Positions 7,418 to 43,206 of a stretch of DNA of 64,000 nt are shown here, in pieces (position 1 is the first letter of the stretch; every line of letters begins with the position of its first letter). The stretch is taken from contig CAZUGF010000004.1 in the NCBI GenBank assembly GCA_964619705.1, positions 25,481 to 89,480 of the forward strand, read 5' to 3'. Under the pieces are notes generated by a model, which worked only from the letters and a program-made list of their open reading frames with translations, was not told where the DNA came from and did not search any database. The DNA comes from an uncultured Bifidobacteriaceae bacterium (lineage in GTDB: Bacteria; Acidobacteriota; Vicinamibacteria; Vicinamibacterales; UBA2999). The position numbers were made by a program, and so were the translations under genes.

Positions 7418-8578
7418 ATGTCCCAACTGTCCAATCGTGCCTTCGCTCCAGCCCTGATCCTGATCCCCGTCCTTGCCCTCGCGGCCCTGTCGGCGGCGTG
7501 CGGCGGCGGCAATGCCCCGGCCGATGCCGGCGGGACGGGCGGCCCCCCGCCGATGCCCGTCCAGGTGGTGACGCTCGAACCGCGGGATCTGGAGCGGACG
7601 AGCGAGTACGTCGCCAACCTGCGCTCGCGCAGTTCCACGACCATCCAGCCGCAGGTCGAGGGGTTCGTGACCCGGATCGCGGTCCGCTCGGGCGATCGCG
7701 TCCAGCGCGGCGCGGTCCTGTTCGAGATCGACGCGGCCCCGCAGCAGGCGGCGCTGGCCTCGACCGAGTCCCTGCGCGCCGTGCGCACGGCGGAAGTGGA
7801 GTACGCGCGCCAGCAGGCGGACCGCATGCAGGCGCTCTTCACGGCCGGCGCCGTCAGCCAGCAGGAACTCGAGCAGGCGCAGACGGCGCTCCGCACCACG
7901 GAGGCGCAGACGCAGGCGCTCGACGAGCAGCTTCGCGAGCAGCGGGCCCAGCTGGGCTACTTCCGCGTCACGGCGCCGACCGCCGGCATGGTCGGCGACG
8001 TCCCCGTGCGCGTGGGGGATCGCGTGACGGCCTCCACGGTCCTGACGACCGTGTCGGACAACGACCGCCTGGAGGTCTACGTCAGCGTGCCGATTCAGCA
8101 GGCGGCGGATCTCCGCACGGGCCTGCCCGTGCGCATCGTCGACGACCGCAACGAGGTGGTGGCGACCAACCCGGTGACGTTCGTGTCGCCGACGGTGGAG
8201 CCCACGCAGACGGTGCTGGCCAAGGCCCTCCTGGTTGACGGCGAGGGCCGGTTCCGGGCCGAGCAACTGGTGCGCGCGCGCATCGTCTGGCGGTCGGAGC
8301 CCGGCCTGACCATTCCGCTGACGTCGGTGACCCGCATCAACGGGCAGTACTTCGTGTTCGTCGCGGAGGCGCAGGGGGAGGGGACCGTCGCGCGGCAGAA
8401 GCCCGTGGCCCTCGGCGATCTCGTCGGTAACGACTACGTGGTGGAGTCCGGCCTGGAGGCCGGCGAGCGACTCATCGTCGGCGGCGTGCAGAAGATCGGG
8501 GACGGCGCGCCGGTGATGATCGCGCCGCCGGCCGGCGCGGGCCCGGCGGACGCCGCGGCAGAAACGAAGGCGTCCTAG
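7418..8578 (+). CDS. Efflux RND transporter periplasmic adaptor (membrane fusion protein)
   Basis: Lipoprotein-type signal (LAALSAAC). HlyD/AcrA-like lipoyl and coiled-coil regions (IQPQVEGFVTRIAVRSGDRVQRGAVLFEID, and QQELEQAQTAL...). Confidence 0.92.
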   Translation: MSQLSNRAFAPALILIPVLALAALSAACGGGNAPADAGGTGGPPPMPVQVVTLEPRDLERTSEYVANLRSRSSTTIQPQVEGFVTRIAVRSGDRVQRGAVLFEIDAAPQQAALASTESLRAVRTAEVEYARQQADRMQALFTAGAVSQQELEQAQTALRTTEAQTQALDEQLREQRAQLGYFRVTAPTAGMVGDVPVRVGDRVTASTVLTTVSDNDRLEVYVSVPIQQAADLRTGLPVRIVDDRNEVVATNPVTFVSPTVEPTQTVLAKALLVDGEGRFRAEQLVRARIVWRSEPGLTIPLTSVTRINGQYFVFVAEAQGEGTVARQKPVALGDLVGNDYVVESGLEAGERLIVGGVQKIGDGAPVMIAPPAGAGPADAAAETKAS

Positions 8579-8580
8579 CC

Positions 8581-11500
8581 ATGCTCGCGGACGTCTTCAT
8601 CAAGCGGCCGGTCCTCTCGACCGTCTGCTCGCTCATCATCATCCTCGCGGGCGCCATCTCGATCCCGACGCTGCCGATTGCCCGCTATCCGGAGCTGGCG
8701 CCGCCGGCGGTGTCGGTCACGGCGTTCTACACCGGCGCCAACGCCCAGACGGTGGAGAGTGCCGTCACCACGCCGCTCGAGCAGGCCATCAACGGCGTCG
8801 AGGGCATGCTCTACATGCAGTCGTCGAGCACGAACTCCGGCATGTCGACGATCACGGTGACGTTCGACATCTCGCGGGATCAGGACCTGGCGGCGGTGGA
8901 CGTGCAGAACCGCGTCAACTCGGCGCTCGGACGCATGCCCGCCGACGTGCGCACCAACGGCATCATCGTCACGAAGGTGACGGCCGGGTTCATGGGCGGC
9001 CTCGGCTTCTTCAGCCAGGACAACCGCTACTCGAACCAGTTCATCAGCAACTACCTGGACCTGTACGTCCGCGACGCCATCAAGCGTGTGCCGGGCGTGG
9101 GCGACGTCATCATCTTCGGCGAGCGGCGGTTTGCCATGCGGTTGTGGCTGGATCCGACGAAGCTCGCGTCGCGCCGGCTGACGGCGGGCGACGTGCTGAA
9201 CGCGCTCCGGGAGCAGAACGTCCAGGTGGCCGCGGGCGCGCTGGGCGACCAGCCCGCCGAGCCCGGGCAGATGTTCACGATCAGCGTCCGGGCCATGGGC
9301 CGGCTGACGGAGGTGTCGGAGTTCGAGAACGTCGTGGTCCAGGCCGGGCCGGACGGTGCGCTCGTGCGGGTCAGCGACATCGGGCGCGTGGAGCTCGGCG
9401 CCGAGCAGTACGCGGCCAACCTCCGCTTCCTCGGGCTCGAGGCCTCGGGTATCGGCATCACGCTGCTGCCGTCCGCCAACGCGCTGGACGTGTACGACGG
9501 CGTGATGGAGGTCATGGCGCGGCTCGAGCCGAGCTTCCCGCCCGCGCTCGAGTGGCGCATGGCGTTCGACAACGTGAGCGTGGTCCGGGAGTCCATCAGC
9601 GAGGTGGTGTGGACGCTCGGCGAGGCCATCGTGCTGGTGATCATCGTGATGTTCCTCTTCCTCCAGAACTGGCGGAGCACGATCATCCCGGCGGTGACGA
9701 TCCCGGTCTCGCTGATCGGCACCTTCGCGTTCATCCGGCTCTTCGACTTCTCGATCAACACGCTGACGCTCTTCGGCATCGTGCTCGCCACCGGCATCGT
9801 CGTGGACGATGCGATCGTGGTCATCGAGAACATCGAGCGCCACATGCACGACTACAAGAAATCCGCGCGGCGCGCGGCGCTCGACGCGATGCGCGAGGTG
9901 TTCGGGGCGGTCATCGTCATCGGCATCGTGCTGGTGTCGGTGTTCGTGCCTGTCGCGTTCTTCCCCGGGGTGACCGGGCGGCTCTACCAGCAGTTCTCGC
10001 TGACCATCGCGTTTGCCGTGCTGCTCTCCGTGTTCAACGCGGTGACGCTGACGCCCGCGCTGGCGGCGCTGCTGCTGGATCGGGAGAGCCACACGCACGG
10101 GCGGTTCTTCACGCTCGTCAACCGGGTCATCGACGGCGGGACCCACCTCTACGTGCGCCTCCTGCGCGGCGCGCTCCGCTTGCGCTATGCGATGGTGATC
10201 CTCTTCGTCGGCCTCCTGTGGGTCACGTGGACGCTCTTCCAGGTCCTGCCCGCGGCGTTCGTGCCGGAGGAGGACGAGGGCTACTTCATCACGGTCGTGC
10301 AGGCGCCGGCCGGTGCCTCGCTCGAGTACTCGACCGAGATTGCCAAGCAGGCGGAGGCGATTCTCTTCGCGGACCCGGATATCGCCGCCGCGTTTTCGGT
10401 GATGGGCTTCAGCTTCTCGGGCGCCGCGCCCAACAACGGGCTGATCTTCGTCCGGCTCAAGGACTACATCGAGCGCCCGGGCGCCGATCACTCCCTCCGC
10501 GCGGTACTCAACCGGGTCAGCGGTCCGCTGTTCATGATCCCGGGCGCCATCGTCGTGGCGTTCCCGCCGCCGCCCATCCAGGGGCTGTCCACGTTCGGCG
10601 GCTTCCAGTTCGAGGTGCTCGACCAGACCAACAGCACGGACATCAACCAGCTGGCCGGCGCGACCTTCGGGCTGATTGGCGCCGGCAACCAGAGCGGGCG
10701 CGTGCAGGGGCTCTTCAGCTCGTTCCGCGCCGACGATCCGCAGCTCATCGTCGACATCGATCGGGACCGGGCGCAGAGCCTCGGCCTGCCGATCCGCGAG
10801 GTGACCGATGCGCTCCAGGTGTTCCTGGGCTCGTCCTACGTCAACGACTTCGACTTCAACAACCGCGCCTACCGCGTGTACGCGCAGGCCGACCAGCAGT
10901 TCCGCGAGACGCCGACGGACCTGAAGCAGCTCTACGCGCGGGCGATGGACGGCACGATGGTGCCGCTCGACACGGTGGTGCGCCTCCACGAGGTGACGTC
11001 GCCGCAGGTCATCAGCCACTTCAACCTGTTCCGCTCCGCGCAGATCACGGGGAACGCCGCGCCGGGGCAGAGCTCCGGCCAGGCGCTCCAGGCGATGGAG
11101 GAACTGGCGCGCGAGACGCTGCCCGCGGGCTTCGACTTCGCCTGGTCCGGCCAGTCGTTCGAGGAGATCAAGTCCGGCGCGCAGGCCGGCCTGATCTTCG
11201 CGCTCAGCGTCATGCTGGTTTACCTGGTGCTGGCGGCGCAGTACGAGAGCTGGGTGCTGCCGTTCATCATTCTCCTGGGCGTGCCGCTGGCGGTACTTGG
11301 TGCGCTCAGCGCCCAGCTCGTCCGCGGGCTGGCCAACGACGTCTTCTGTCAGGTGGGCCTCGTCCTGCTCGTGGGCCTGGCGGCGAAGAACTCCATCCTG
11401 ATCGTCGAGTTCGCCGAGCAGATGCGGGAGCGCGGGATGTCGATCTTCGATGCGGCGGTCGAGGCCGCCCGCATCCGGCTGCGGCCCATCCTGATGACCT

Positions 11501-13068
11501 CCTTCGCGTTCATCCTGGGCGTGATGCCGCTGGCGCTCGCGACGGGGGCCGGCGCGGCGGCGCGCAACTCCGTCGGCACGGCGGTGGCCGGCGGCATGCT
11601 GGCCTCGACGTTCCTGGCCATCATCTTCATCCCGGTGCTCTACGTGATCCTGCGCACGCTGGTGCCGGGCCGCGCGCACCGCGGCCATGACGAGGACGAG
11701 GACGAGGGACCGGAGACCGGCGGCCACGGGCCCGCGCTCGGGGCGGCCGGCGCCGCCCTCCTGCTGGCCCTCGCCGCCGGCACGCCGGCGATGGCGCAGC
11801 CCCTGACGCAGGCCGCGTTCCAGGCGGGGATGCAGCCGGCGCCAGCCGCGGCGCAGGCGTCACCCGATCCGGCGCCGGAGGCGCTCTCGTTCGACGAGGC
11901 GGTGGCGCGTGCGGTGGCCAACAACCCGACCGTGCAGATTGCCGCGACGAGCGTGCTCCGGGCGGAGGCGATCCTGCAGCAGGTGCGGGCCGGCACGCTC
12001 CCCGCCGTCACGGCGTCCTTCAGCAACACCACGATCGACGGCGCCCGCGGCTTCGACGACCTGGTGACGCAGCCGCAGAACCAGTCACTCATCGCGGGCA
12101 CGGTGTCCATGCCGGTGCTCGCGGCGTCGCGGTGGGCCGCGCGGGCGCAGCAGGGCGATCGCATCGCGCTGGCGCAGCTCAACACGGCCGACGTGCGGCG
12201 GCAGATTGCCGTCTCCGCCGCCACGGCGTATCTGGCCATCATCACGCAGAAGCGGCAGGTCGAGGTGCAGGAGCGTGCCCTCGAGACCTCGCGCGCGCAG
12301 CTCGATTACAACCAGAAGCGGCTCGAGGGCGGCATCGGCAGCCGGCTGAACGCACTCCGGGCCGGGCAGGTGGCGGCCACCGACGAGAGCCTGCTGGAAC
12401 TGGCGCGCCTCAACGTGCGCCGCTCGCAGGAGGCGCTCGGCGTCCTCCTCGGCGAGGACCGGCCCATCGACGCGACGAGCGAGCCGGCCTTCGAGATTCC
12501 CGTCATCGGCGAGGAGTCGGAGTGGATGCCCACGCGTCCGGACATCCAGTTCTTCACCGCCGACCAGCGCCTCAACGAGCGCATCGTGCGCGACAGCTCG
12601 AAGGACTGGTGGCCGACGGCCAGCGTCTCCTTCGACCCGCAGTACGTGACGCCGGCCGGCCTCTTCCAACCCTCGCGGACCTGGCGGCTGACGCTCAGCG
12701 CCGTGCAGCCCATCTTCGACGGCGGCGAGCGCCGGGGCCTGCGGCGGCAGCGCGAGGCCGACCTGCGGGCGAGCGCGCTCACGCTGCAGCAGCGGGAGAT
12801 CCAGGCGCGCGCCGAGGTGCGCAACGCGCGGGCGGCGGTGGAGTTCAACGAGCGGGCCCTGGCAAGCGCGCGGCTGGCCGCGCAGAACGCCAACGAAGTG
12901 CTCCAGATCACCATCCTCGCCTTCGACGCCGGCGCGTCCACGAACATCGAGGTGATCGATGCGCAGCGATCCGCCCGGGACCTGGAGACCGTGGTGACGC
13001 AGACGGAGGATCGCGTCCGCCAGGCGCGGCTGGACCTGCTGGTCGCGCTCGGGCGGTTCCCGCAGTAG
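8581..13068 (+). CDS. RND (HAE1/AcrB-like) inner-membrane permease fused in frame to a TolC-like outer-membrane factor
   Basis: One uninterrupted 1495-codon ORF. Residues 1 to about 1030 are AcrB-like (MLADVFIKRPVLSTV..., 12 TM, two large periplasmic loops). Residues about 1075-1495 are OMF-like (SFDEAVARAVANNPTVQIA..., duplicated coiled halves). The junction has an acidic linker HRGHDEDEDEGPETGG followed by the signal-peptide-like ALGAAGAALLLALAAGTPAMA-QP (nt 11734-11796). Confidence 0.85.
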   Translation: MLADVFIKRPVLSTVCSLIIILAGAISIPTLPIARYPELAPPAVSVTAFYTGANAQTVESAVTTPLEQAINGVEGMLYMQSSSTNSGMSTITVTFDISRDQDLAAVDVQNRVNSALGRMPADVRTNGIIVTKVTAGFMGGLGFFSQDNRYSNQFISNYLDLYVRDAIKRVPGVGDVIIFGERRFAMRLWLDPTKLASRRLTAGDVLNALREQNVQVAAGALGDQPAEPGQMFTISVRAMGRLTEVSEFENVVVQAGPDGALVRVSDIGRVELGAEQYAANLRFLGLEASGIGITLLPSANALDVYDGVMEVMARLEPSFPPALEWRMAFDNVSVVRESISEVVWTLGEAIVLVIIVMFLFLQNWRSTIIPAVTIPVSLIGTFAFIRLFDFSINTLTLFGIVLATGIVVDDAIVVIENIERHMHDYKKSARRAALDAMREVFGAVIVIGIVLVSVFVPVAFFPGVTGRLYQQFSLTIAFAVLLSVFNAVTLTPALAALLLDRESHTHGRFFTLVNRVIDGGTHLYVRLLRGALRLRYAMVILFVGLLWVTWTLFQVLPAAFVPEEDEGYFITVVQAPAGASLEYSTEIAKQAEAILFADPDIAAAFSVMGFSFSGAAPNNGLIFVRLKDYIERPGADHSLRAVLNRVSGPLFMIPGAIVVAFPPPPIQGLSTFGGFQFEVLDQTNSTDINQLAGATFGLIGAGNQSGRVQGLFSSFRADDPQLIVDIDRDRAQSLGLPIREVTDALQVFLGSSYVNDFDFNNRAYRVYAQADQQFRETPTDLKQLYARAMDGTMVPLDTVVRLHEVTSPQVISHFNLFRSAQITGNAAPGQSSGQALQAMEELARETLPAGFDFAWSGQSFEEIKSGAQAGLIFALSVMLVYLVLAAQYESWVLPFIILLGVPLAVLGALSAQLVRGLANDVFCQVGLVLLVGLAAKNSILIVEFAEQMRERGMSIFDAAVEAARIRLRPILMTSFAFILGVMPLALATGAGAAARNSVGTAVAGGMLASTFLAIIFIPVLYVILRTLVPGRAHRGHDEDEDEGPETGGHGPALGAAGAALLLALAAGTPAMAQPLTQAAFQAGMQPAPAAAQASPDPAPEALSFDEAVARAVANNPTVQIAATSVLRAEAILQQVRAGTLPAVTASFSNTTIDGARGFDDLVTQPQNQSLIAGTVSMPVLAASRWAARAQQGDRIALAQLNTADVRRQIAVSAATAYLAIITQKRQVEVQERALETSRAQLDYNQKRLEGGIGSRLNALRAGQVAATDESLLELARLNVRRSQEALGVLLGEDRPIDATSEPAFEIPVIGEESEWMPTRPDIQFFTADQRLNERIVRDSSKDWWPTASVSFDPQYVTPAGLFQPSRTWRLTLSAVQPIFDGGERRGLRRQREADLRASALTLQQREIQARAEVRNARAAVEFNERALASARLAAQNANEVLQITILAFDAGASTNIEVIDAQRSARDLETVVTQTEDRVRQARLDLLVALGRFPQ

Positions 13069-34355: not shown

Positions 34356-35874
34356 GGACCTCGTCCGCTTCATCGTCGAGCACCGCGCGGAGTTCCTGAC
34401 CCGGACGCTGGAGCACGTCCGGCTTGTCGTCTACTCCGGCGTGCTGGCGGCGCTGATCGGCATCCCGTTCGGTCTGGTGGCCGCACGCCGGCCCGGCCTC
34501 GCGCGCCCCATTGTCGGGCTGGCCAACCTGGCGCAGACCATCCCGAGCCTGGCCCTGTTCGGGTTCCTGATCCCGCTGCCGGTGCTCGGCGGCATCGGGA
34601 CGCGGACGGCGCTCGTCGCCCTCACGCTGTATGCCGTGCTGCCGATTCTGCGCGGCACGATCACCGGCGTCCAGGGGGTGGACCGCGCTGTCGTCGAGTG
34701 CGCGCGGGCCATGGGCATGACGCCGCGCCAGGTGCTCTGGCAGGTCGAGTGGCCGCTCGCGCAGCCGGCCATCCAGGCCGGCGTCCGCGTGGCCGTGGTC
34801 ATCAGCGTCGGCACGGCGACCATCGCGTCCGCCATTGGCGCGGGCGGGCTCGGCGACTATATCTTCCGCGGCCTCGCGATGGTCGACACCACGGTGATCC
34901 TTGCCGGCGCGCTTCCGGCCGCGCTCCTCGCGCTCGGCGCCGACGCGCTGCTGGCCGCGTTCGGCCGCTGGTCGGACCCGCGGCACGGGCGGCGGCCGAT
35001 CGTGGCCGGTGCCGTGGCCGCCGGCCTGGCGCTGGCGCTGCTGTTGTCCTCGCTCGCCGGCCCCGGCGCCGCACGGCCCGTCGTCGTCGCGTCCAAGAAC
35101 TTCACCGAGCAGATCGTGCTGGGCGAGATCCTCGCGCAGCAGATCGAGGACGTCACCGGCGCACGCGTGGAGCGGCGCTTCAACCTCGGCGGCACGGCCA
35201 TCGCGCACGGCGCGCTGGTGGCGGGCGACATCGACGTCTACGTGGAGTACACCGGCACGGCGCTGACGGCCATCTTCGGCGAGCCCGTCTCGTCGGACGG
35301 TGACACGGTGCTGGCGCGCGTCGCGGCACGGTACGCGGATCTCGGGGTGACGGCCTTGCCGCGGCTCGGGTTCAACAACACGTTTGCGATCCTGGTCCGG
35401 GCGGACGCCGCGGCGCGCGAGGGGTTGGCGCGCATCAGCGACCTGGCCCGCGTCGCGCCCCGATGGACGGCGGGCTTCGGCTACGAGTTCCTCGAGCGGC
35501 CGGACGGGTTTGCGGGACTGGCCGCCGCGTACGGGCTGCGGTTTGCCGCGCCGCCGCGCGTGATGGACCTGAACCTGATCTACCGGGCGCTCTCCGCCGG
35601 TGAGATCGACGTGACGGCCGGGGACGCCACGAGCGGCCTCATCGATGCCCTGGATCTCGTCGTCCTCGATGACGACCGGCAGTACTTCCCCGTCTACGAC
35701 GCGGTCCCCGTCGCGCGGGCCGCGCTGCTGCGGGAGCGCCCCGACGTGGAGGCGGCCCTCCGCGCGCTCGGTGGCCGGATCACCGCCTCGGCCATGCGCC
35801 GCATGAACGCCGCCGTGGACAACGAGCGGCGGACGCCGGCTGCCGTGGCGCGGGACTTCCTCGCGGACCGGTAG
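34348..35874 (+). CDS. ABC transporter permease fused to OpuAC/OsmX-type substrate-binding domain
   Basis: The N-terminal ~215 aa is a BPD-type permease (EAA-like ARAMGMTPRQVLWQVEWPLA). The C-terminal ~270 aa is a glycine-betaine-type SBP (VVVASKNFTEQIVLGEILAQ..., DVYVEYTGTAL, GFNNTFAILV). It overlaps the ATPase gene by 8 nt. Confidence 0.85.
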   Translation: MLEDLVRFIVEHRAEFLTRTLEHVRLVVYSGVLAALIGIPFGLVAARRPGLARPIVGLANLAQTIPSLALFGFLIPLPVLGGIGTRTALVALTLYAVLPILRGTITGVQGVDRAVVECARAMGMTPRQVLWQVEWPLAQPAIQAGVRVAVVISVGTATIASAIGAGGLGDYIFRGLAMVDTTVILAGALPAALLALGADALLAAFGRWSDPRHGRRPIVAGAVAAGLALALLLSSLAGPGAARPVVVASKNFTEQIVLGEILAQQIEDVTGARVERRFNLGGTAIAHGALVAGDIDVYVEYTGTALTAIFGEPVSSDGDTVLARVAARYADLGVTALPRLGFNNTFAILVRADAAAREGLARISDLARVAPRWTAGFGYEFLERPDGFAGLAAAYGLRFAAPPRVMDLNLIYRALSAGEIDVTAGDATSGLIDALDLVVLDDDRQYFPVYDAVPVARAALLRERPDVEAALRALGGRITASAMRRMNAAVDNERRTPAAVARDFLADR

Positions 35875-36163
35875 CGCCCGCCGGCGCGCCGGTCCCTGGC
35901 CGGTGGGGGGCGGTCTCGCCCGTGCTCATCCGCCCCATCCCTGTGGGGTTCGCTGCTCCGTGTCCGATCGGGCCTGTGGCGGCCTCGTTACCCGGGGCTC
36001 CGAGCCCGGAACCTCAGCCGTAGGGGCCCGTTGTAACGCTCCCCGAGCCCCGCGACACCATCCTCCAGGCTGCGCTTTTTCGTGTGTCCGGCCGGATGGG
36101 TTTTGTGCTCTGATCCGCTGACCCCCGGCGTTCGCACCACTTGCTATCAAGGAGCGGGTTGCC

Positions 36164-38110
36164 GTGACCGACACACCTCGCCGTCGCGCGTCGAGCGCCC
36201 TCGTTGGTCTTTCCGTTCTCGTCTTCACCGGCGCTCTCGCCTGGACCGCCGTGGCTCCTGGAGTGCCGCTCCATGCCCAGCCGCAACCGGCGGACGACTA
36301 CGGCTACGGCGGCCGCTACCTGACGCCCGAACAGCGTGAGGGCCGTGACACCTGGTACTTCTGGACCGGCGGCAACGAGACGTTCTGGGTCGAGATGAAC
36401 CGGATCACCGAGGGCAACGTCAGCCTGATCAACTACGTGGACAGCCGGCGGCACGGCCGCCGCTTCCGCGAGCTCGGCGCCATCACGCAGCCGGGCTGCG
36501 AGGCCGCCACCGCGCCGGACCAGTACGGGTTGTGGATGGACACCTGCGATCAGCCGCCCGTGCCGGGCATCCCCGGCGAGGCCAGCGGCATCGTCGGGCT
36601 GCGCAAGTTCCCGAACCCCAGGTTCGATGCCGCGAACTGGGATGCGGCGCAGTACCTCGCGCACCCCGGCGACATGCAGCCGCCCTACCTGCTGGGGCTG
36701 ACGTGCGGGTTCTGCCACATCGGGTTCAACCCGCTCGATCCGCCGGAGGACCCCGAGCGGCCGACGTGGGACAACCTGGCGGGCACCATCGGCAACCAGT
36801 ACTGGGAAGAGGGCAAGCTCTTCAGCCTGAACATGAAGCCGGACGACTTCCGCTGGCACGTGGCGGCGCGGCAGGCGCCGGGGACGTCGGACACCTCGCG
36901 CTTCGCGACGGATCACATCAACAACCCGAACGCGATCAACACCATCTTCAACCTCGGCTCGCGCCCGACCACCGAGGAGCGCATGCGCGACGGCACGATG
37001 CGGGCCGTCCATCACATCCTGAAGGACGGGTCGGACTCCGTGGGCGTGGCCGGCGCGTCGCTCCGCGTCTACGTGAACATCGGGATGTGCGGGGACTACT
37101 GGGTGACGCTCCACGATCCCGTGCTCGGCATCGCGCGCCCGCAGGCGCCGTTCGACATGGACCACGCGCGCCAGCACTGCCCGGACTGGGTGGCCACCGA
37201 GGCGCGGATGGACAACGCCGAGGCGTTCCTGAAGACGATGAAGCCGCTGCGCCTGGAGGAGGCCAGGGGCGGCGCGGCGCACCTGACGGCCTCGGCCGAG
37301 ACGCTGGCAGCCGGCCGCCGCGCGTTTGCGGATACGTGCGCCCGGTGCCATTCCAGCAAGCAGCCGCCTGCGGGTACCGCGGACGCCGCGGCCTGGTTCC
37401 GCGAGGCCGTCGAGCGCGAGGACTTCCTCGCCGACAACTTTCTTTCGGACGATCGCCGCTACAGCGTCACCGAGCTCGGGACCAACTCGGCGCGCGCGCT
37501 GGGCACCAACGCGGGGCGCGGCAGCATCTGGGATCAGTTCTCGTCGGAGTCCTACAAGGAGCTGCCGTCGGCCGGCCGCCTGACGGGCCTGTACAACCCG
37601 CAGAACCCCACGAAGCCGATTGACATGGACCTGCCGGGCGGCGGCCGCGGCTACTACCGCACGGCCTCGCTGACCAGCATCTGGGCCACGGCGCCGTACC
37701 TGCACAACAACTCCGTCGGCATCTACGTGAAGGATCCCTCGGTGCGGGGGCGGCTCACCGCGTTCGAGGACGGGATGCGGAAGCTGCTGTGGCCGGAGCA
37801 GCGCCTCGGCGCGCAGTCGATTCCCGTGACCACGGTGGACAGCTGGGTGACGATCAGCGGATCGAGCCGCCGCGTGCGCATCCCCGCGGGCACGCCCGTG
37901 GACTACGTCGCGCGCGTCGACCCGACACGCCTGCCCGACATCATCCGGAACAGCTCGCTCCTCAACCTGTTCTCGGACGAGGCGATCTTCCGCCGCATGC
38001 TGCGGAACAACCGGGCGCCGGACTTCATCCTGGATCGCGGCCACACCTTCGGCGCCGGGCTGCCCGACGCCGACAAGTGGGCGCTCATCGAGTACCTGCG
38101 GACGTTCTGA
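36164..38110 (+). CDS. Large di-haem c-type cytochrome, CCP/MauG/RoxA-like (648 aa)
   Basis: GTG start with AAGGAG 10 nt upstream. N-terminal signal-like segment. Exactly two CxxCH motifs (CGFCH at aa 181-185, nt 36704-36718; CARCH at aa 392-396). Distal motif APYLHNNSV and C-terminal ALIEYLRTF are shared with the two downstream paralogs. Confidence 0.8.
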   Translation: MTDTPRRRASSALVGLSVLVFTGALAWTAVAPGVPLHAQPQPADDYGYGGRYLTPEQREGRDTWYFWTGGNETFWVEMNRITEGNVSLINYVDSRRHGRRFRELGAITQPGCEAATAPDQYGLWMDTCDQPPVPGIPGEASGIVGLRKFPNPRFDAANWDAAQYLAHPGDMQPPYLLGLTCGFCHIGFNPLDPPEDPERPTWDNLAGTIGNQYWEEGKLFSLNMKPDDFRWHVAARQAPGTSDTSRFATDHINNPNAINTIFNLGSRPTTEERMRDGTMRAVHHILKDGSDSVGVAGASLRVYVNIGMCGDYWVTLHDPVLGIARPQAPFDMDHARQHCPDWVATEARMDNAEAFLKTMKPLRLEEARGGAAHLTASAETLAAGRRAFADTCARCHSSKQPPAGTADAAAWFREAVEREDFLADNFLSDDRRYSVTELGTNSARALGTNAGRGSIWDQFSSESYKELPSAGRLTGLYNPQNPTKPIDMDLPGGGRGYYRTASLTSIWATAPYLHNNSVGIYVKDPSVRGRLTAFEDGMRKLLWPEQRLGAQSIPVTTVDSWVTISGSSRRVRIPAGTPVDYVARVDPTRLPDIIRNSSLLNLFSDEAIFRRMLRNNRAPDFILDRGHTFGAGLPDADKWALIEYLRTF

Positions 38111-38121
38111 GGGCCGGTGCC

Positions 38122-39453
38122 ATGCCGCAGGACATCATCTTCACCCCGCTGGCCTTCCGGAGCCTCGCGGTCAAGAACCGCATCTTCCGCTCCAACATCT
38201 CGGGGCGGCTCGACAACTACGACGGCTCCGGCAACCAGGCGCGGATCAACTGGGAGACCAAGTTCGCCCGCGGCGGCGTCGGCGCCATCATCTCGTCGTT
38301 CGTGCCGGTCCACCTCCGCGGGCGCATCCTTCCGAACTACGCGATGATCCACGACGACGGGACGATCCCCTTCTGGCGGGCGCTCGGCCGCGCCGTGCAC
38401 GAGCACGACTGCCGCTACATCCTGCAACTGAGCCACGGCGGCCGGCAGCGGGACATCAACGGCATCGAGTACCCGACCGGGTTGAGCTCCACGGACAAGG
38501 CGGATCCCATCCACGGCTTCCGCTGCGAGCGCATGAGCGTCGCGCAGATCGGCGAGGTGGTCGCGCAGTTCGCGGAGGGCGCGCGGCGCGCACGGGAGGC
38601 GGGCCTGGACGGCGTGGAGCTGCATGGGGCCAACGGCTACCTGATCACGCAGTTCCTGAGTTCCGCCATCAACGATCGGACCGACGACTACGGCGGCAGT
38701 CTCGAGAACCGCGCGCGGTTCGTGCTCGACATCGTGCGCGCCATCCGGCAGCGCGTCGGCCGCGACTTCCACCTCCAGGTCAAGATCAGCGCCGTGGATC
38801 ACGACAATGTGCTCCGGCGCGTGCACCGCGGTTCGGCGGGGAACACGCTGAGCGAGTCGGTGCAGGTGTGCCGCTGGCTGGAGGCGGCGGGCGTGGATGC
38901 GATCCACGTGTCCACGGGCAGCTTCTTCCCCCACCCGAAGAACCCGCTCGGCCGCGACCTGCCGGTCGACGACCTGGCGGCGTCCTACGACACGATGCTG
39001 TCGAGCGGGGAGCGAACGTTCCTCAACTACCTGCTCTTCCGGGGCCTGACCGGCCAGATCGCGCGCAACGCCTGGAACGAGGCCGCGGGCGATCGGGATC
39101 ACATCGAGGGATCCAACCTCGGGTACGCGAAGTCCATCCGGACGGCCGTCGGCATCCCGGTCATCTGCACGGGCGGGTTCCAGACCGCCTCGTTCATCCG
39201 CGACGCCATCACGCGCGGCGACTGCGATGCGGTGAGCGCGGCCCGTCCGCTCGTCGCGAACAACGATCTCGTGCTGCAGTTCGCGCGCGGGCGTGACCAG
39301 GCCGAGAAGCCCTGCACCTACTGCAACCGCTGCCTCGTCAACGCCGTGGAGAACCCGATCGGGTGCTACGACGTCTCGCGGTTCGCCTCGCGGGAAGCCA
39401 TGGTGGAGGAGATCATGTCCGTCTTCCAGCCCCCGCCCTTCACGGAGGCCTGA
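38122..39453 (+). CDS. Old Yellow Enzyme-family NADH:flavin oxidoreductase domain protein with C-terminal Cys cluster
   Basis: OYE TIM-barrel motifs (LQLSHGGRQ, GVELHGANGYLITQFLSSAINDRTDDYGGSLENRARF, ICTGGF, DAVSAARPLVANNDL). It ends with CTYCNRCLVNAVENPIGC (C-x2-C-x2-C-x10-C). 443 aa, no signal peptide. Confidence 0.88.
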   Translation: MPQDIIFTPLAFRSLAVKNRIFRSNISGRLDNYDGSGNQARINWETKFARGGVGAIISSFVPVHLRGRILPNYAMIHDDGTIPFWRALGRAVHEHDCRYILQLSHGGRQRDINGIEYPTGLSSTDKADPIHGFRCERMSVAQIGEVVAQFAEGARRAREAGLDGVELHGANGYLITQFLSSAINDRTDDYGGSLENRARFVLDIVRAIRQRVGRDFHLQVKISAVDHDNVLRRVHRGSAGNTLSESVQVCRWLEAAGVDAIHVSTGSFFPHPKNPLGRDLPVDDLAASYDTMLSSGERTFLNYLLFRGLTGQIARNAWNEAAGDRDHIEGSNLGYAKSIRTAVGIPVICTGGFQTASFIRDAITRGDCDAVSAARPLVANNDLVLQFARGRDQAEKPCTYCNRCLVNAVENPIGCYDVSRFASREAMVEEIMSVFQPPPFTEA

Positions 39454-39455
39454 TC

Positions 39456-40901
39456 GTGAATCCCACGCGTCCCGGGCTCACGCGGATTGCCTGGGCTGCC
39501 GCCTGGGCGGCGGCCGCCACGGGGCTCTGCGCCGCGCTCGCGGCGGCGGGCGCCACGGCGCGCGTGTCGGCGCAGGACGACATCGTCGCGCACTTCAAGT
39601 ACGGGTCCGTCGGCACGGAGGCGACCGTCGGCGTGCCGTACGCGCTGTGGCGCGTCCTCCCGATTGTGTTCGCGGACAAGCTTCCGGCCCGGCCCGGCGA
39701 GGGCTACGAGCGCCTCGGATTCGTCTACGAGCCGGATGCCCCGCGCGGACGGCCCATCGGGACCACCTATGTCGAGGCGCGCGTACCGCTCGTGGGCCTC
39801 AACTGCGCGACGTGCCACACGGGGACGCTCCGCGAGTCGCCATCGGGACCCAGGCGGATCATCCCGGGCATGCCGGCCCACCAGATGGACCTGCAGGCCT
39901 ATGCGAACTTCCTGACCGCGTGCGCCAGCGACCCGCGGTTCGACGCGGCGACCCTGATTGAGGCGATGCGGGCGCAGGATCCGGCGTTCTCGTGGCTGAG
40001 CTCGCTGCTCTACCGGTTCGTCGTCATCAAGCGCACGCGTGACGGGATCCTGGAGCGGGCGCAGATGAACGCGTGGTTCGACGCGCGGCCGCCGCAGGGC
40101 CCGGGGCGCGTGGACACGTTCAATCCCTACAAGCGCCTCTTCGGCTTCGACATGGGGGCCGACGCCACGGTGGGAACCGCCGACCTGCCGCCGCTCTTCA
40201 ACCAGCGGCCGCGGCAGGGCATGTGGCTCCACTGGGACGGCAACAACGACAGCGTGGAGGAGCGCAACAAGAGTGCGGCCATCGGCGCGGGGGCCACCGA
40301 GGCGTCGCTGGACCTCGCGTCGCTCGATCGTGTCGCGGCGTGGACGCTGGACCTGAAGGCGCCGGTCTACCCGGCGGACCGCATCGACCAGCTGCGCGCG
40401 GCCGAGGGCGCCGCCATCTACGCGCGTGCGTGCGCGCGCTGCCACGCGATGGACGGCGAGGCGGTCGGGCAGGTGACACCGCTGACGGAGATCGGGACCG
40501 ATCCCGAGCGGGTCCAGTCCTTCACGGCCGCGCTCGCCGCGCGCATGAACACGATCGGCACGGGACGGCCCTGGCAGTTCGCGCACTTCCGCAAGACGGA
40601 CGGCTACGCGAACATGCCGCTCGACGGTGTCTGGCTGCGCGCCCCCTACCTGCACAACGGGTCCGTGCCCACGCTGCGCGCGCTCCTGTTCCCGAGCGAG
40701 CGTCCGCGCGTCTTCTATCGCGGGTACGACGTGTATGACTGGGACCGCGTCGGCTTCGTCGCGGAAGGGCCGGAGGCGGAGGCCAACGGCGTCCGCTTCG
40801 ACACGAGCCTTCGCGGCAACGGGAACGGCGGCCACACCTACGGGCAGGAACTGTCGGCGACCGAGCGCGGCGCGCTCATCGAGTTCCTGAAGACGCAATG
40901 A
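39456..40901 (+). CDS. Di-haem c-type cytochrome, CCP/MauG-like paralog
   Basis: The GTG at 39456 has GGAGG 7 nt upstream. Signal peptide ends ARVSA-QD. CATCH and CARCH motifs; APYLHNGSVPTLRALL; C-terminal ALIEFLKTQ. The N-terminal HFKYGSVGTEA..GVPYALWRVLP is shared with the next gene. Confidence 0.82.
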   Translation: MNPTRPGLTRIAWAAAWAAAATGLCAALAAAGATARVSAQDDIVAHFKYGSVGTEATVGVPYALWRVLPIVFADKLPARPGEGYERLGFVYEPDAPRGRPIGTTYVEARVPLVGLNCATCHTGTLRESPSGPRRIIPGMPAHQMDLQAYANFLTACASDPRFDAATLIEAMRAQDPAFSWLSSLLYRFVVIKRTRDGILERAQMNAWFDARPPQGPGRVDTFNPYKRLFGFDMGADATVGTADLPPLFNQRPRQGMWLHWDGNNDSVEERNKSAAIGAGATEASLDLASLDRVAAWTLDLKAPVYPADRIDQLRAAEGAAIYARACARCHAMDGEAVGQVTPLTEIGTDPERVQSFTAALAARMNTIGTGRPWQFAHFRKTDGYANMPLDGVWLRAPYLHNGSVPTLRALLFPSERPRVFYRGYDVYDWDRVGFVAEGPEAEANGVRFDTSLRGNGNGGHTYGQELSATERGALIEFLKTQ

Positions 40902-42289
40902 TCATCGTCCGTACCGCGGCCCTCGTCAGCCTCACCCTGCTCCTGTGGAGCGTGCCGGGGGACGCGCAGCCGGACCCGGTGGATCCCGCCGAGCACTTCA
41001 AGTACGGCTCCGTCGGTATCGAGGCCGAGGAGGGCCTGCCGTACTGGGTCTGGCAGGTGCTGCCGCAGATGTTTCCCGAGAAGCTGCCCGGTCCCGGCGG
41101 CTACGCCTCGTTCGGCATCGTCTGGGAGCCGGGCCGCGAGCTGCCGGTCGGGTTCTCCAGGAAGGACGTGCTCGGCTCGGCGCGCGTGGCCGTCAACTGC
41201 GCCTTCTGCCACACGGCCACGTACCGCACGGCACCGGATGCGGACCGCCGGATCGTACCCGGCGGCGCGGCCGGCATGCTGCGGCCGCAGGCCTACTCGC
41301 GCTTCCTCGAGGCGGCGGCCGCCGACGATCGCTTCAATGCCTCCACGGTGCTCGAGGCCATCGGGCGCATGGGCACGCTCTCGTGGACGGAGTCGCTGGC
41401 GTATCGCTTCCTCCTCATTCCCGGCACGAAGCGGGCGCTGCTGCGGCACCGCCGGGAGTTTGCGTGGATGGACTCGCGGCCGGACTGGGGGCCCGGGCGG
41501 ATCGACCCACTCAACCCGTTCAAGTTCCGGCAGCTCCGGCAGCCCGTCGACGACAGCATCGGCAATGCCGACATGACGCCGCTGTGGTCCCTCGGCCTCC
41601 GCGACGGCCGGGCGCTGCACTGGGACGGCCTCAACCCCTCGCTCGACGAGGTGCTCATCAGCTCCGCCATCGGGAACGGCGCGAGTGCGAAGTCCGTGGA
41701 TCGCGACAGCCTCGAGAAGGTCGGCCGCTGGGTGCGCGGCCTCGAGCCGCCGCGCTTCCCGTTCGGCATCGACGAGGTGCTGGCCGCGCGCGGCGAGCCG
41801 ATCTTCACCCAGGCCTGCGCCTCGTGTCACGCCGACGGAGGCGCGCGCACGGGCACGGTCATCGCGGTGGAGGAAGTGGGTACGGACCGTCACCGCCTGG
41901 ACGCGTGGAACGCCGCGTCCGCGGAGGCGTTCAATGCCGTCGCGGCGGGGAGGCCCTGGCAGTTCCGCCGGTTCCGCACGACCGGCGGGTACGTCGCGAT
42001 GCCGCTCGCGGGCGTCTGGCTCAACGCGCCGTACCTGCACAACGGATCCGTGCCGTCGCTCGCGGACCTGCTCCAGCCCGAGGAGCGCAGGCCGGTCCGC
42101 TTCCACCGCGGCTACGACGTGTACGACCCGATCGCCGTCGGCTTCGTCTCGCGCGGTGCCGCCGCCGAGCACGAGGGTGAGCTGTACGACACGAGCCTGC
42201 CGGGCAACGCCCGCGCCGGCCACGCCTACGGCACGACGCTGGCGCCGGAGGAGAAGGCGGCCCTGCTGGAGTACCTGAAGACCCGGTGA
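40898..42289 (+). CDS. Di-haem c-type cytochrome, CCP/MauG-like paralog
   Basis: ATGA overlap with the previous stop. Signal peptide MIIVRTAALVSLTLLLWSVPGDA. CAFCH and CASCH motifs; APYLHNGSVPSLADLL; ALLEYLKTR; HFKYGSVGIEA..GLPYWVWQVLP. Confidence 0.85.
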   Translation: MIIVRTAALVSLTLLLWSVPGDAQPDPVDPAEHFKYGSVGIEAEEGLPYWVWQVLPQMFPEKLPGPGGYASFGIVWEPGRELPVGFSRKDVLGSARVAVNCAFCHTATYRTAPDADRRIVPGGAAGMLRPQAYSRFLEAAAADDRFNASTVLEAIGRMGTLSWTESLAYRFLLIPGTKRALLRHRREFAWMDSRPDWGPGRIDPLNPFKFRQLRQPVDDSIGNADMTPLWSLGLRDGRALHWDGLNPSLDEVLISSAIGNGASAKSVDRDSLEKVGRWVRGLEPPRFPFGIDEVLAARGEPIFTQACASCHADGGARTGTVIAVEEVGTDRHRLDAWNAASAEAFNAVAAGRPWQFRRFRTTGGYVAMPLAGVWLNAPYLHNGSVPSLADLLQPEERRPVRFHRGYDVYDPIAVGFVSRGAAAEHEGELYDTSLPGNARAGHAYGTTLAPEEKAALLEYLKTR

Positions 42290-42301
42290 GCAAGGAGGCC
42301 C

Positions 42302-42868
42302 GTGATGGAAGACCCCCGCATCGTTCTGTATTTCCTGAGCTCGATCGCCGGGATGGTGATGGTCATCGGCGGCATCTGGCTGATCTACAAGGAGAAGATC
42401 TACATCGATCGCGAGTCGCAGCAGCCCATCGAGATCCGGACGCCGTTCGGCGGGTTCAGGAACAACTACCCGGCGCTGACGCTCTTCGCGCTCGGCTTCT
42501 TCCCGCTCATCTACCCGCTCTACGCCATCAAGGACATCCAGGACGGGCGGGTGAGCGTGGCGACGGTGCGGCTCTCGGGGCCGGTGAAGATGAAGGCCTA
42601 CCCGGTCGCCATCTACGCGTCGGCCGAGGACTACTTCGTCGAGCGGGACGGGTCATTCACCGTCGAGGTCCCGACCTTCGGCGGCCGGGCCAGGGACTAC
42701 AAGGTGCTCCTCGTGGTGAACGGGCAGGTGCTCGACACGCAGCGCGTGCGCGTGGACCCCGACACCCTCGAACAGGAGGTGGCCTTCATGCCGCCGGAGA
42801 TCGAGGAGAGCCCCTTCCAGCCGACATTGCTCCCGGTCCCGTCGGACTACGGGGTGATCCGGCCATGA
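42302..42868 (+). CDS. Hypothetical 2-TM membrane protein with C-terminal beta-sandwich-like region
   Basis: 188 aa. Two N-terminal TM helices (IVLYFLSSIAGMVMVIGGIWLI; ALTLFALGFFPLIYPLYAI). The following VRLSGPVKMKAYPVAIYAS...DGSFTVEVP...YKVLLVVNG resembles a carboxypeptidase-regulatory-like fold. The gene looks slightly less GC-rich than its neighbours. Confidence 0.6.
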   Translation: MMEDPRIVLYFLSSIAGMVMVIGGIWLIYKEKIYIDRESQQPIEIRTPFGGFRNNYPALTLFALGFFPLIYPLYAIKDIQDGRVSVATVRLSGPVKMKAYPVAIYASAEDYFVERDGSFTVEVPTFGGRARDYKVLLVVNGQVLDTQRVRVDPDTLEQEVAFMPPEIEESPFQPTLLPVPSDYGVIRP

Positions 42869-43206
42869 CCCGGCGCGCTGTGTTTGCCGTCGCCGCGGCC
42901 CCCCTGCTTGCCGCCGTCGTCCCGGCGCGGCCGGCCGCGCAGGGGACCGTGGACTTCCGCGGGCGTGTCTACGACGCGGCGTCCAAGACCGGCGTGCAGA
43001 ACCTGGAGGTCAAGCTGACGCCGCCGCGGCAGGTCAAGATCCCCGCGCGCATTGCCCGCACGGACCGCGACGGGGTGTTTGCCTTCCCGCGCCTGGTGCG
43101 CGGCCGCTACCTGCTGGAGGTCTCCCAGGGCGTCTCGCTGCTCTACCGCGCCGAACTGGACGCCACGAGCACGGACAGCGTGGAGGTGCCCCTCAGGCGA
43201 CGATGA
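42865..43206 (+). CDS. Small secreted carboxypeptidase-regulatory-like (CarboxypepD_reg) domain protein
   Basis: ATGA overlap at 42865. Signal peptide ends [24 protein letters not shown]...[21 protein letters not shown] matches the canonical pattern of this domain. Confidence 0.7.

Follow-up and report, generated by a model that had tools for sequence, protein, structure and literature searches.

We have analysed a 64,000-nt stretch of DNA with about 70% G+C (below called the window), in which six co-directional genes, here named g1 to g6, occupy positions 36164-43206. An earlier note, made from the sequence alone, had described them as a candidate oxidative system of three di-haem cytochromes c, a flavoprotein of the old yellow enzyme (OYE) family and two small proteins, and its coordinates and gaps were re-derived identically. 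Rather than a CcpA peroxidase operon, the region very probably encodes a conserved oxidative module of the RoxA type with an ene-reductase of its own. That g1 to g4 constitute a membrane-associated oxidative pathway for unsaturated fatty acids, acyl lipids or their hydroperoxides, i.e. a lipid/oxylipin pathway, we regard as having about an even chance of being correct; it is the association with neighbouring genes that appears to narrow the substrate class to unsaturated fatty acids or lipids.

The proteins encoded by g3 and g4 are 48% identical over their full length. Each has exactly two CxxCH motifs (CATCH117 and CARCH326 in g3, CAFCH101 and CASCH307 in g4), and both contain the block HFKYGSVG...VLP and the MauG motif PYLHNGSVP. 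The two CxxCH motifs of each of g1, g3 and g4, the HFKYGSVG block of g3 and g4 and the segments APYLHN(N/G)SV and AL(I/L)E(Y/F)L(K/R)T common to all three had been listed in the earlier note and were all found again. Both g3 (188.1 bits) and g4 (178.3 bits) are members of NCBIfam family NF040606 (cutoff 150), whose name, 'di-heme-cytochrome C peroxidase', is an annotation name only. Pfam family PF21419 (RoxA-like_Cyt-c) is present in g1, g3 (63.5 bits) and g4. The Pfam family CCP_MauG (PF03150) reached 15.1 bits in g4, below its gathering threshold of 25.6, and gave no match in g1 or g3. Against the NCBIfam equivalogs for RoxA, RoxB and RoxC (cutoffs 1000, 900 and 900 bits, respectively) g3 and g4 scored 56-87 bits, the best scores being 87 for g3 (with RoxC), 76 for g4 and 24 for g1; orthology of the haem proteins with RoxA, RoxB or RoxC was rejected, since these scores lie at least 10-fold under the cutoffs.

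Structural models, built with AlphaFold2 without haem, point in the same direction. The g4 model (predicted local distance difference test, pLDDT, 86.4; predicted template modelling score, pTM, 0.85) had RoxA (4b2n) as its sole significant Foldseek match in the PDB, with E=4.5e-10, a probability of 1.00, a template modelling score of 0.55 normalised on the query and 17% identity; MauG came next, at E=0.14. In a phmmer alignment with RoxA, C101xxC104H105 of g4 falls on C191xxC194H195, W242 on the inter-haem W302, H381 on H517 of the MauG motif, and H442, which is invariant in the family alignment, on H641, the second axial ligand of the C-terminal haem. These RoxA-aligned residues are kept in at least 90% of the sequences of both the g3-type and the g4-type clade. 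Residues that are specific to one clade cluster in the helix that aligns with the distal pocket of RoxA: the g3-type clade keeps R270, N271, A274 and A278 there, of which R270 and N271 are polar, and in the g4-type clade the same helix is hydrophobic and variable. On the basis of alignment and model, g3 and g4 are thus predicted to have a RoxA-like fold and the RoxA pattern of haem ligands. An ordinary CcpA or MauG assignment of the haem proteins is ruled out by Pfam, NCBIfam and Foldseek, as CCP_MauG is absent or below cutoff and the g4 model matches RoxA 4b2n alone with significance.

The product of g2 is an OYE-type barrel binding flavin mononucleotide (FMN), as proposed previously (Oxidored_FMN, PF00724, 208 bits); it has no signal peptide and no hydrophobic segment and is therefore taken to be cytoplasmic. 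Its best match in the PDB is the 2,4-dienoyl-CoA reductase FadH of E. coli (1ps9, E=4.8e-42), with an alignment that reaches the segment of the FadH Cys cluster, and OPR3 and PETNR are also among its PDB matches. It carries the classical OYE motif H168-x2-N171-x-Y173 (substrate binding and proton donor) and, in a region aligned with C334/C337/C341 of FadH, C398-x2-C401-x2-C404-x10-C415, a motif of the [4Fe-4S] type that is missing from the earlier note. No variation at H168, N171, Y173 or the four Cys was seen among 27 homologues taken from several phyla. The same note had called g2 truncated, which does not hold: the homologues are uniformly 441-449 residues long, and this stable short form, which in g2 ends 28 residues after the last Cys, is the family norm. 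No domain for binding flavin adenine dinucleotide (FAD) or NAD(P)H was found in g2, so that a separate partner must either supply it with electrons or accept them. Barrel residue 266 is followed by an insertion of about 50 residues. Long-form equivalogs (BaiCD, mycofactocin-OYE, BilR) scored about 90-180 bits against cutoffs of 628-825, and NamA also stayed far below its cutoff.

The third haem protein, g1, stands apart. It too has exactly two CxxCH motifs (CGFCH181-185 and CARCH392-396), followed by APYLHNNSV510-518 (PYLHNNSVG) and GH627, the His of which is invariant in the g1-type alignment. With 28.4 bits to PF21419 and 52.8 bits to NF040606 (cutoff 150) it is not a member of the latter family, and BLASTP against g4 gave only E=2e-5. 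With hhalign, residues 349-648 of g1 matched the g3/g4 family (residues 272-463 of g4) with a probability of 98.6 and E=9e-16, the homology being limited to the C-terminal half. By sequence g1 had no match in the PDB, and its AlphaFold2 model (pLDDT 75) gave weak matches to MauG (E=0.026), hydrazine synthase and cytochrome c peroxidase (CCP), all at E>=0.026. Judged from these comparisons, g1 is a distinct, very divergent family and a remote homologue of g3 and g4. The proposal of three paralogous di-haem cytochromes accordingly stands for g3 and g4, and fails for g1 as a close paralogue. Placement of all three in the superfamily of bacterial CCP, MauG and RoxA is borne out by PF21419 in each, by NF040606 above cutoff in g3 and g4, and by the weak matches of the g1 model to the MauG fold. 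Longer g1-type proteins (815-1059 residues), with a GMC oxidoreductase gene directly following, are found in Alphaproteobacteria and some Acidobacteriota.

To define the conserved unit, a scan with g4, using one genome per species, yielded 36 loci, and with the addition of public contigs 41 non-redundant loci (numbered with the prefix L) were compared. Gene presence was assessed by targeted tblastn, since clustering of stop-to-stop open reading frames (ORFs) was confounded by shadow ORFs in DNA of high G+C content. All 41 loci have a g3-type together with a g4-type gene; 35 of them also have g2 and 26 a g1-type gene, several of the absences being contig ends, and the gene order of the module is kept. 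By their labels, the carriers belong to at least five phyla: Acidobacteriota (Vicinamibacterales, Pyrinomonadaceae), Cyanobacteria (Nostoc, Moorena, Limnofasciculus, Coleofasciculaceae), Alphaproteobacteria (Rhodopila, Kiloniellaceae and Defluviicoccus vanus, the last with a complete genome), Planctomycetota and Gemmatimonadota. The neighbourhood g2-g3-g4, usually with a g1-type gene, is hence conserved far past close relatives; of the six-gene synteny that had been proposed, g1 to g4 form the conserved unit, and g5 and g6 are confined to the nearest relatives. In a neighbour-joining tree the g3-type and g4-type proteins form two clades, each with members from Acidobacteriota, Cyanobacteria, Alphaproteobacteria and Gemmatimonadota. 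Because both clades span several phyla, the duplication must be old and both copies have been kept, which speaks for roles that are not redundant or for a heteromer. The family is large, with 1,575 clusters at 50% identity at E<=1e-30 and 6,739 at E<=1e-3. Source annotations read 'hypothetical protein', 'mono/diheme cytochrome c family protein', 'cytochrome c5', 'NADH:flavin oxidoreductase' or '2,4-dienoyl-CoA reductase', and a search of the full-text literature found no published description of this gene set, only the work on RoxA and on PA2077/PA2078.

In 15 of the 41 loci a protein of about 140 residues with several transmembrane segments and no Pfam family is encoded between g3 and g4 (for example at L011:9402-9839, L014:9350-9787, L012:9413-9838 and L026:9457-9888); it has the motif WFGRVxWLGI...FYIPGAxDPxRY and is absent from the window. 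Directly downstream of the g4 homologue, L029 (11323-12645), L001 (11407-12705) and L043 (11438-12754) encode a protein of about 440 residues, likewise without a Pfam family, which is possibly another accessory component.

Natural fusions connect the members of the module. In a search of 1.84 billion proteins, the 150 best representatives include nine clusters at 50% identity that have the small transmembrane domain, in one or two copies, fused N-terminally to a di-haem domain of the g3/g4 type. Moreover, the 1025-residue protein P0419 (L047:2857-5934) consists of a g2-type OYE, a linker, one transmembrane helix and a g3-type di-haem domain. The gene order of this locus is [g2::g3]-[smallTMx2::g4]-g1long-GMC, with an OsmC gene divergently upstream. 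Across the P0419 junction the G+C content by codon position does not differ from that in the remainder of the gene, and stops abound in the other frames, which supports a real fusion. Such fusions put the reductase and the di-haem enzymes on opposite faces of one membrane, the cytoplasmic and the outer face, respectively, and they argue for a substrate that is lipophilic or membrane-borne. The earlier suggestion of oxidation in the envelope with follow-up chemistry in the cytoplasm is strengthened by this order of OYE, helix and di-haem domain.

At least one gene of a lipid-related type (alpha-dioxygenase, lipoxygenase, catalase-related protein, P450, GMC oxidoreductase, short-chain dehydrogenase/reductase (SDR) or lipase) lies in 20 of the 41 loci. 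The gene of an alpha-dioxygenase of about 600 residues lies next to the g2 homologue, or overlaps it, in L023, L029, L032 and a JGI contig, all from Acidobacteriota, and about 3.5 kb away in Moorena. This neighbour is a full-length enzyme of the plant type (E=2.6e-113 to rice 4kvj and 7.6e-111 to Arabidopsis 4hhr) whose YRMH motif coincides with the position of the catalytic Tyr. L023, L026, L029, L031 and L032 encode a catalase-related protein of about 330 residues that matches MAP_2744c of Mycobacterium (3e4w, E=9e-11), a peroxidase for organic and fatty-acid hydroperoxides. In Nostoc (L011) a lipoxygenase (PF00305, E=2.7e-62) is encoded two genes after g4, together with an SDR and a PGAP1/LCAT-like lipase. 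The Moorena locus has a P450 and an SDR, the Pyrinomonadaceae locus L012 a patatin phospholipase and two GMC oxidoreductases, and L040 and L032 a Lipase_3; the OsmC gene of L047 belongs to the same kind of surroundings.

The chemistry has precedents. RoxA and RoxB cleave polyisoprene with O2 bound at the N-terminal haem, and the two paralogues act synergistically (PMC6311187). In P. aeruginosa, PA2077 (10S-dioxygenase) and PA2078 (7,10-diol synthase) convert oleate via the 10S-hydroperoxide to the 7,10-diol; they are a tandem, RoxA-related, periplasmic pair, 43% identical, of the 'FadCcp' subfamily (PMC4496055, PMC5155153). Both characterised kinds of the RoxA branch thus oxygenate C=C bonds of lipophilic substrates outside the cytoplasm, which sets a precedent for the module. 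By analogy, the g4-type enzyme would bind O2 at its N-terminal haem on the periplasmic face and oxygenate a C=C bond or an allylic position, like RoxA and PA2077. The g3-type enzyme, with Arg and Asn on the distal helix, may isomerise or reduce the hydroperoxide, like PA2078, and g1 could catalyse another oxidation or a cleavage. Where other lineages have a GMC oxidoreductase or SDR, this enzyme might turn allylic alcohols into enones. On the cytoplasmic side g2 would reduce an alpha,beta-unsaturated carbonyl, with His and Asn binding the carbonyl and Tyr donating the proton, as happens in the jasmonate-pathway enzyme OPR3; its FMN may receive electrons through the Fe-S cluster from a separate donor, e.g. 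a ferredoxin or flavodoxin. No small electron-donor cytochrome or cupredoxin was found in the module, so that an O2-dependent oxygenase or isomerase fits better than peroxidase turnover.

Several observations weigh against this lipid/oxylipin assignment. The lipid-associated loci are partly related and represent about five independent lineages, not twenty, and about half of the 41 loci have no lipid-type genes. Within the window itself, no lipoxygenase, alpha-dioxygenase, catalase-related, GMC oxidoreductase or lipase gene was detected at E<=1e-3. The substrate is assigned through guilt by association, and the products of plant-type alpha-dioxygenases (2-hydroperoxy acids, and from them aldehydes) are no obvious precursors of enones. 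As to the enzymes, F317, the Phe of the distal O2 pocket in RoxA, is not kept, the residue opposite being I258 of g4 in a weakly aligned segment (4.1 bits). The suggested division of labour between g3 and g4 derives from a few clade-specific residues, and their apparent likeness to PA2077 and PA2078 was established from published motifs. Finally, the electron donor for g2 is not among the genes identified, and the fusion of OYE and di-haem domain comes from a single metagenomic contig.

The main rival explanation concerns the same class of substrate with a different purpose: the di-haem proteins would be periplasmic peroxidases reducing lipid hydroperoxides to alcohols and the OYE would reduce 2-alkenals and enones, the whole serving detoxification of lipid peroxides and electrophiles and protection of the membrane, with no defined products. 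OYEs reduce lipid-derived electrophiles. The family name given to g3 and g4 in NCBIfam favours such a role, as do neighbours such as the MAP_2744c-like catalase-related protein, OsmC and an AhpC-TSA/DsbD_N protein, and the carriers are Cyanobacteria and metagenome-assembled genomes (MAGs) apparently largely from soil and other environments, for which exposure to oxygen may be presumed. However, the module lacks an electron-donor cytochrome or cupredoxin, the C-terminal haem is of the His/His type and the fold that of RoxA and not of CCP, with CCP_MauG below cutoff. Three distinct conserved paralogues exceed the needs of a scavenger, and the nearby makers of hydroperoxides (alpha-dioxygenase, lipoxygenase) and lipases suggest a pathway rather than scavenging; detoxification is, in our judgement, rather unlikely. 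Cleavage of isoprenoids or polyenes in the manner of RoxA and RoxB, in which C=C bonds of carotenoids, polyprenols or comparable polyenes would yield aldehydes and ketones and the OYE would saturate conjugated products, has the attraction that carotenoid and isoprenoid lipids are common in the carrier phyla. RoxA is moreover the sole significant structural match, and RoxA and RoxB are themselves synergistic paralogues (PMC6311187). Yet the equivalog scores of 56-87 bits compare with cutoffs of 900-1000, Ile takes the place of F317, RoxA exceeds g3 and g4 in length by about 200 residues, and the module is accompanied by genes for fatty-acid enzymes and lipases rather than by carotenoid or terpenoid genes, all of which makes this cleavage clearly unlikely.

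Two further possibilities were considered. If the haem proteins acted like MauG in protein or peptide maturation, residues of g5, g6 or the small membrane protein would be oxidised or cross-linked. The best, though weak, matches of the g1 model are to MauG (E=0.026), the MauG motif is present, and small proteins are co-encoded; but the module has no conserved companion gene for a quinoprotein dehydrogenase or a precursor-type protein, conservation is lacking for g5 and g6 as well, the small membrane protein occurs fused as an N-terminal anchor, unlike a substrate, and the invariant cytoplasmic ene-reductase would have no role. We consider maturation highly improbable. Respiratory or extracytoplasmic electron transfer, with the cytochromes as shuttles and g2 as a cytoplasmic dehydrogenase feeding them, would account for six haems in three exported proteins and for a g2 that is of the Fe-S type and has no NAD(P)H domain, as in dehydrogenases of the trimethylamine dehydrogenase type. 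Against it, there is no redox module that spans the membrane, e.g. a quinol dehydrogenase or b-type cytochrome, the links between the two sides are a single transmembrane helix or a small transmembrane domain without cofactor, and the RoxA-like fold is of enzyme size with conserved pocket residues; shuttling is the least probable of the readings considered.

The arrangement of the six genes is given in the table. The intergenic distances from g1 to g6 are 11, 2, -4, 12 and -4 nt, the start of g4 overlapping the stop of g3 (ATGA) and the start of g6 that of g5, and the region forms one operon-like unit. Consensus scans, which were not tuned for Acidobacteria, found no sigma-70-type promoter or intrinsic terminator in the leader, in the genes or between them; the lack of internal matches is compatible with one transcript but is not proof of it. 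On an identical public contig (L037) an independent gene caller predicted proteins of 648, 443, 481, 463, 187 and 113 residues. The G+C content at codon position 3 is 0.91-0.95 for g1 to g6 (all six frames). Long antisense and alternative-frame ORFs over g1 to g6 were rejected as genes; they are shadows, because their G+C content by codon position mirrors that of the sense genes. One N-terminal hydrophobic segment was found in each of g1, g3, g4 and g6, in agreement with the signal-like segments noted before for g1, g3 and g4; the three haem proteins are predicted to be exported by a Sec-type route.

Features of the g1-g6 region, with positions in the 64,000-nt window.
Feature	Position	Strand	Length	Description
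leader	35875-36163	+	289 nt	non-coding
g1	36164-38110	+	648 aa	exported di-haem c-type protein, divergent member of the RoxA/MauG/CCP superfamily (predicted)
g2	38122-39453	+	443 aa	OYE-family FMN barrel, cytoplasmic (predicted)
g3	39456-40901	+	481 aa	exported RoxA-like di-haem enzyme, g3-type clade (predicted)
g4	40898-42289	+	463 aa	exported RoxA-like di-haem enzyme, g4-type clade (predicted)
g5	42302-42868	+	188 aa	two N-terminal hydrophobic segments and a C-terminal domain without recognised fold
g6	42865-43206	+	113 aa	small exported protein, CarboxypepD_reg-like (transthyretin-like) domain (predicted)

The Shine-Dalgarno sequence AAGGAG (36149-36154) precedes the GTG start of g1. In an alignment with five relatives, the leader blocks TTTTGTGCTCTGATCC (36101-36116) and CCCCCGGCG (36122-36130) are conserved, in the closest relatives only; together with GTTGTAACG they lie at 36030-36130 of the window and are common to L001, L004, L005 and L006, not to distant relatives, and they could be a promoter or operator. 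Leader and cluster gave no Rfam match at E<=1. Upstream, an OpuAC-type ABC permease gene ends at 35874; the OpuAC ABC transporter and the aconitase that flank the cluster were discarded as functional partners and treated as unrelated, because their synteny is limited to the closest relatives. A defence system was likewise rejected for g1 to g6, among which PADLOC found no match. The nearest relatives of the locus are labelled mostly Vicinamibacterales (Acidobacteriota). In L001 (labelled Bifidobacteriaceae) and L003 (labelled Acidimicrobiia) the module is 68-84% identical in protein sequence to that of the window, like the modules of Vicinamibacterales MAGs; the taxonomy or binning labels of these two loci are probably wrong, MAG taxonomy labels being imperfect. 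Elsewhere in the window (8431-13065, +), a single stop-to-stop ORF of 1545 codons encodes a full AcrB-type resistance-nodulation-division transporter (residues 53-1074) and an outer-membrane efflux domain (1370-1541), and may represent either two adjacent genes in frame or a fusion.

Both g5 and g6 are lineage-specific. The hydrophobic segments of g5 (about 5-30 and 58-76) agree with the two transmembrane segments previously suggested; it has no match in Pfam, NCBIfam or PADLOC, and its homologues are limited to L005 and L007 (plus the identical contig L037). The beta-sandwich fold suggested for g5 in the earlier note has neither a Pfam match nor a similarity to g6 behind it. With 0.38, its G+C content at codon position 2 is low compared with 0.46-0.54 in the other five genes (0.95 at position 3), and its amino-acid composition, rich in Ile, Tyr, Lys and Phe, is atypical for the genome. 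The description of g6 as a secreted CarboxypepD_reg-like protein stands as borderline: PF13620 scored 31.5 bits against a cutoff of 32.3, and the same family appears in the precomputed Pfam annotation of an identical protein. Homologues of g6 were found only in L005 and L007. Homology of g5 and g6 to each other or to the small transmembrane protein was rejected, as no similarity was seen. They may be accessory envelope proteins of this lineage, and g5 could stand in as membrane partner for the small protein with four transmembrane segments found elsewhere.

In two loci the surroundings include genes for cell death. In L029 and on the JGI contig a bacterial gasdermin, flanked by a subtilase, is encoded 3-6 nt upstream of the g3-g4 pair on the same strand (in L029 at 7599-8447, +, PADLOC bGSDM, E=2.9e-67, with the pair at 8451-9923 and 9908-11314; on the JGI contig Pfam Bact_GSDM). 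The JGI contig also has TIR, TPR-S/MAP3K_TRAF_bd, Trypsin_2 and Endonuclease_NS genes, and its pair of OYE and alpha-dioxygenase genes lies 4-5 kb from the gasdermin-g3-g4 locus. From this gene content, the lipid-oxidising genes of that Vicinamibacterales lineage sit in a conflict or cell-death island. An ancient membrane oxylipin system, in which oxidised lipids act as signals or effectors of membrane damage in cell-death or immunity programmes, is a speculative and very unlikely extension; if true, bacteria would couple lipid oxygenation to gasdermin-type pores, as animals and plants couple oxylipins to immunity.

Pfam and NCBIfam already contain the protein families concerned, and there are precedents for the chemistry. 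What is new is the architecture of the module, in which two ancient paralogues are combined with a third, divergent di-haem protein, a short OYE of the Fe-S type and a small membrane protein as partner; its phyletic breadth and its neighbourhood of lipid enzymes are new as well. To our knowledge, bacterial oxylipin biology rests on few enzymes, namely a handful of lipoxygenases and the diol synthase pair of P. aeruginosa, and RoxA-type di-haem oxygenases are regarded as rare specialists. Here a RoxA-like family belongs to a fixed module of several enzymes, among them a dedicated Fe-S ene-reductase, in abundant and poorly studied soil Acidobacteriota as well as in Cyanobacteria, Alphaproteobacteria, Planctomycetota and Gemmatimonadota. 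If the assignment to lipids is true, it would define a new and widespread way in which bacteria oxygenate lipids enzymatically, offer new cofactor-independent C=C or allylic oxygenases and an unusual ene-reductase for biocatalysis, and give a testable function to thousands of proteins annotated as 'hypothetical' or 'cytochrome c family'.

Among known systems, FadCcp resembles g3 and g4 in being a tandem of RoxA-related di-haem paralogues, with 43% identity there compared with 48% here. According to the published motif table, through which the comparison was made, both have two CxxCH motifs, PY(F/L)HNGSVP and a C-terminal distal His, and PA2077 and PA2078 have type I signal peptides. They differ in size, with 634 and 624 residues for PA2077 and PA2078, respectively, as compared to 481 and 463 for g3 and g4, and in F317, which is kept in PA2077 and PA2078 and is Ile in both g3 and g4. 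The FadCcp operon moreover consists of two genes, and neither an OYE nor a third di-haem protein nor a small membrane protein is mentioned as part of it in the papers that describe it (PMC4496055, PMC5155153). RoxA and RoxB share with the module that they are secreted, cooperating paralogues, and the first CxxCH, W302, H517 and H641 of RoxA have aligned counterparts in g4; on the other hand RoxA is about 200 residues longer than g3 and g4, with 17% identity and F317 in the place of Ile. Unlike RoxA and RoxB, the module has no rubber-degradation neighbours and does have a cytoplasmic reductase as partner.

CcpA and MauG have in common with the haem proteins the di-haem architecture of the superfamily and the MauG motif, and the g1 model weakly resembles MauG, whereas the haem proteins are larger, have a C-terminal haem of the RoxA His/His type and are accompanied neither by a partner cytochrome nor by a substrate of the kind of the methylamine dehydrogenase precursor. 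For its part g2 is like FadH in its FMN-binding TIM barrel and in the Cys cluster at the place where FadH binds its 4Fe-4S cluster, but it is without the FAD and NADPH domains, has the spacing CxxCxxC, and shows His and Asn at the positions of Met and Glu in FadH. With its H-x2-N-x-Y motif it is, in this part of the active site, like the classical ene-reductases OPR3 and PETNR.

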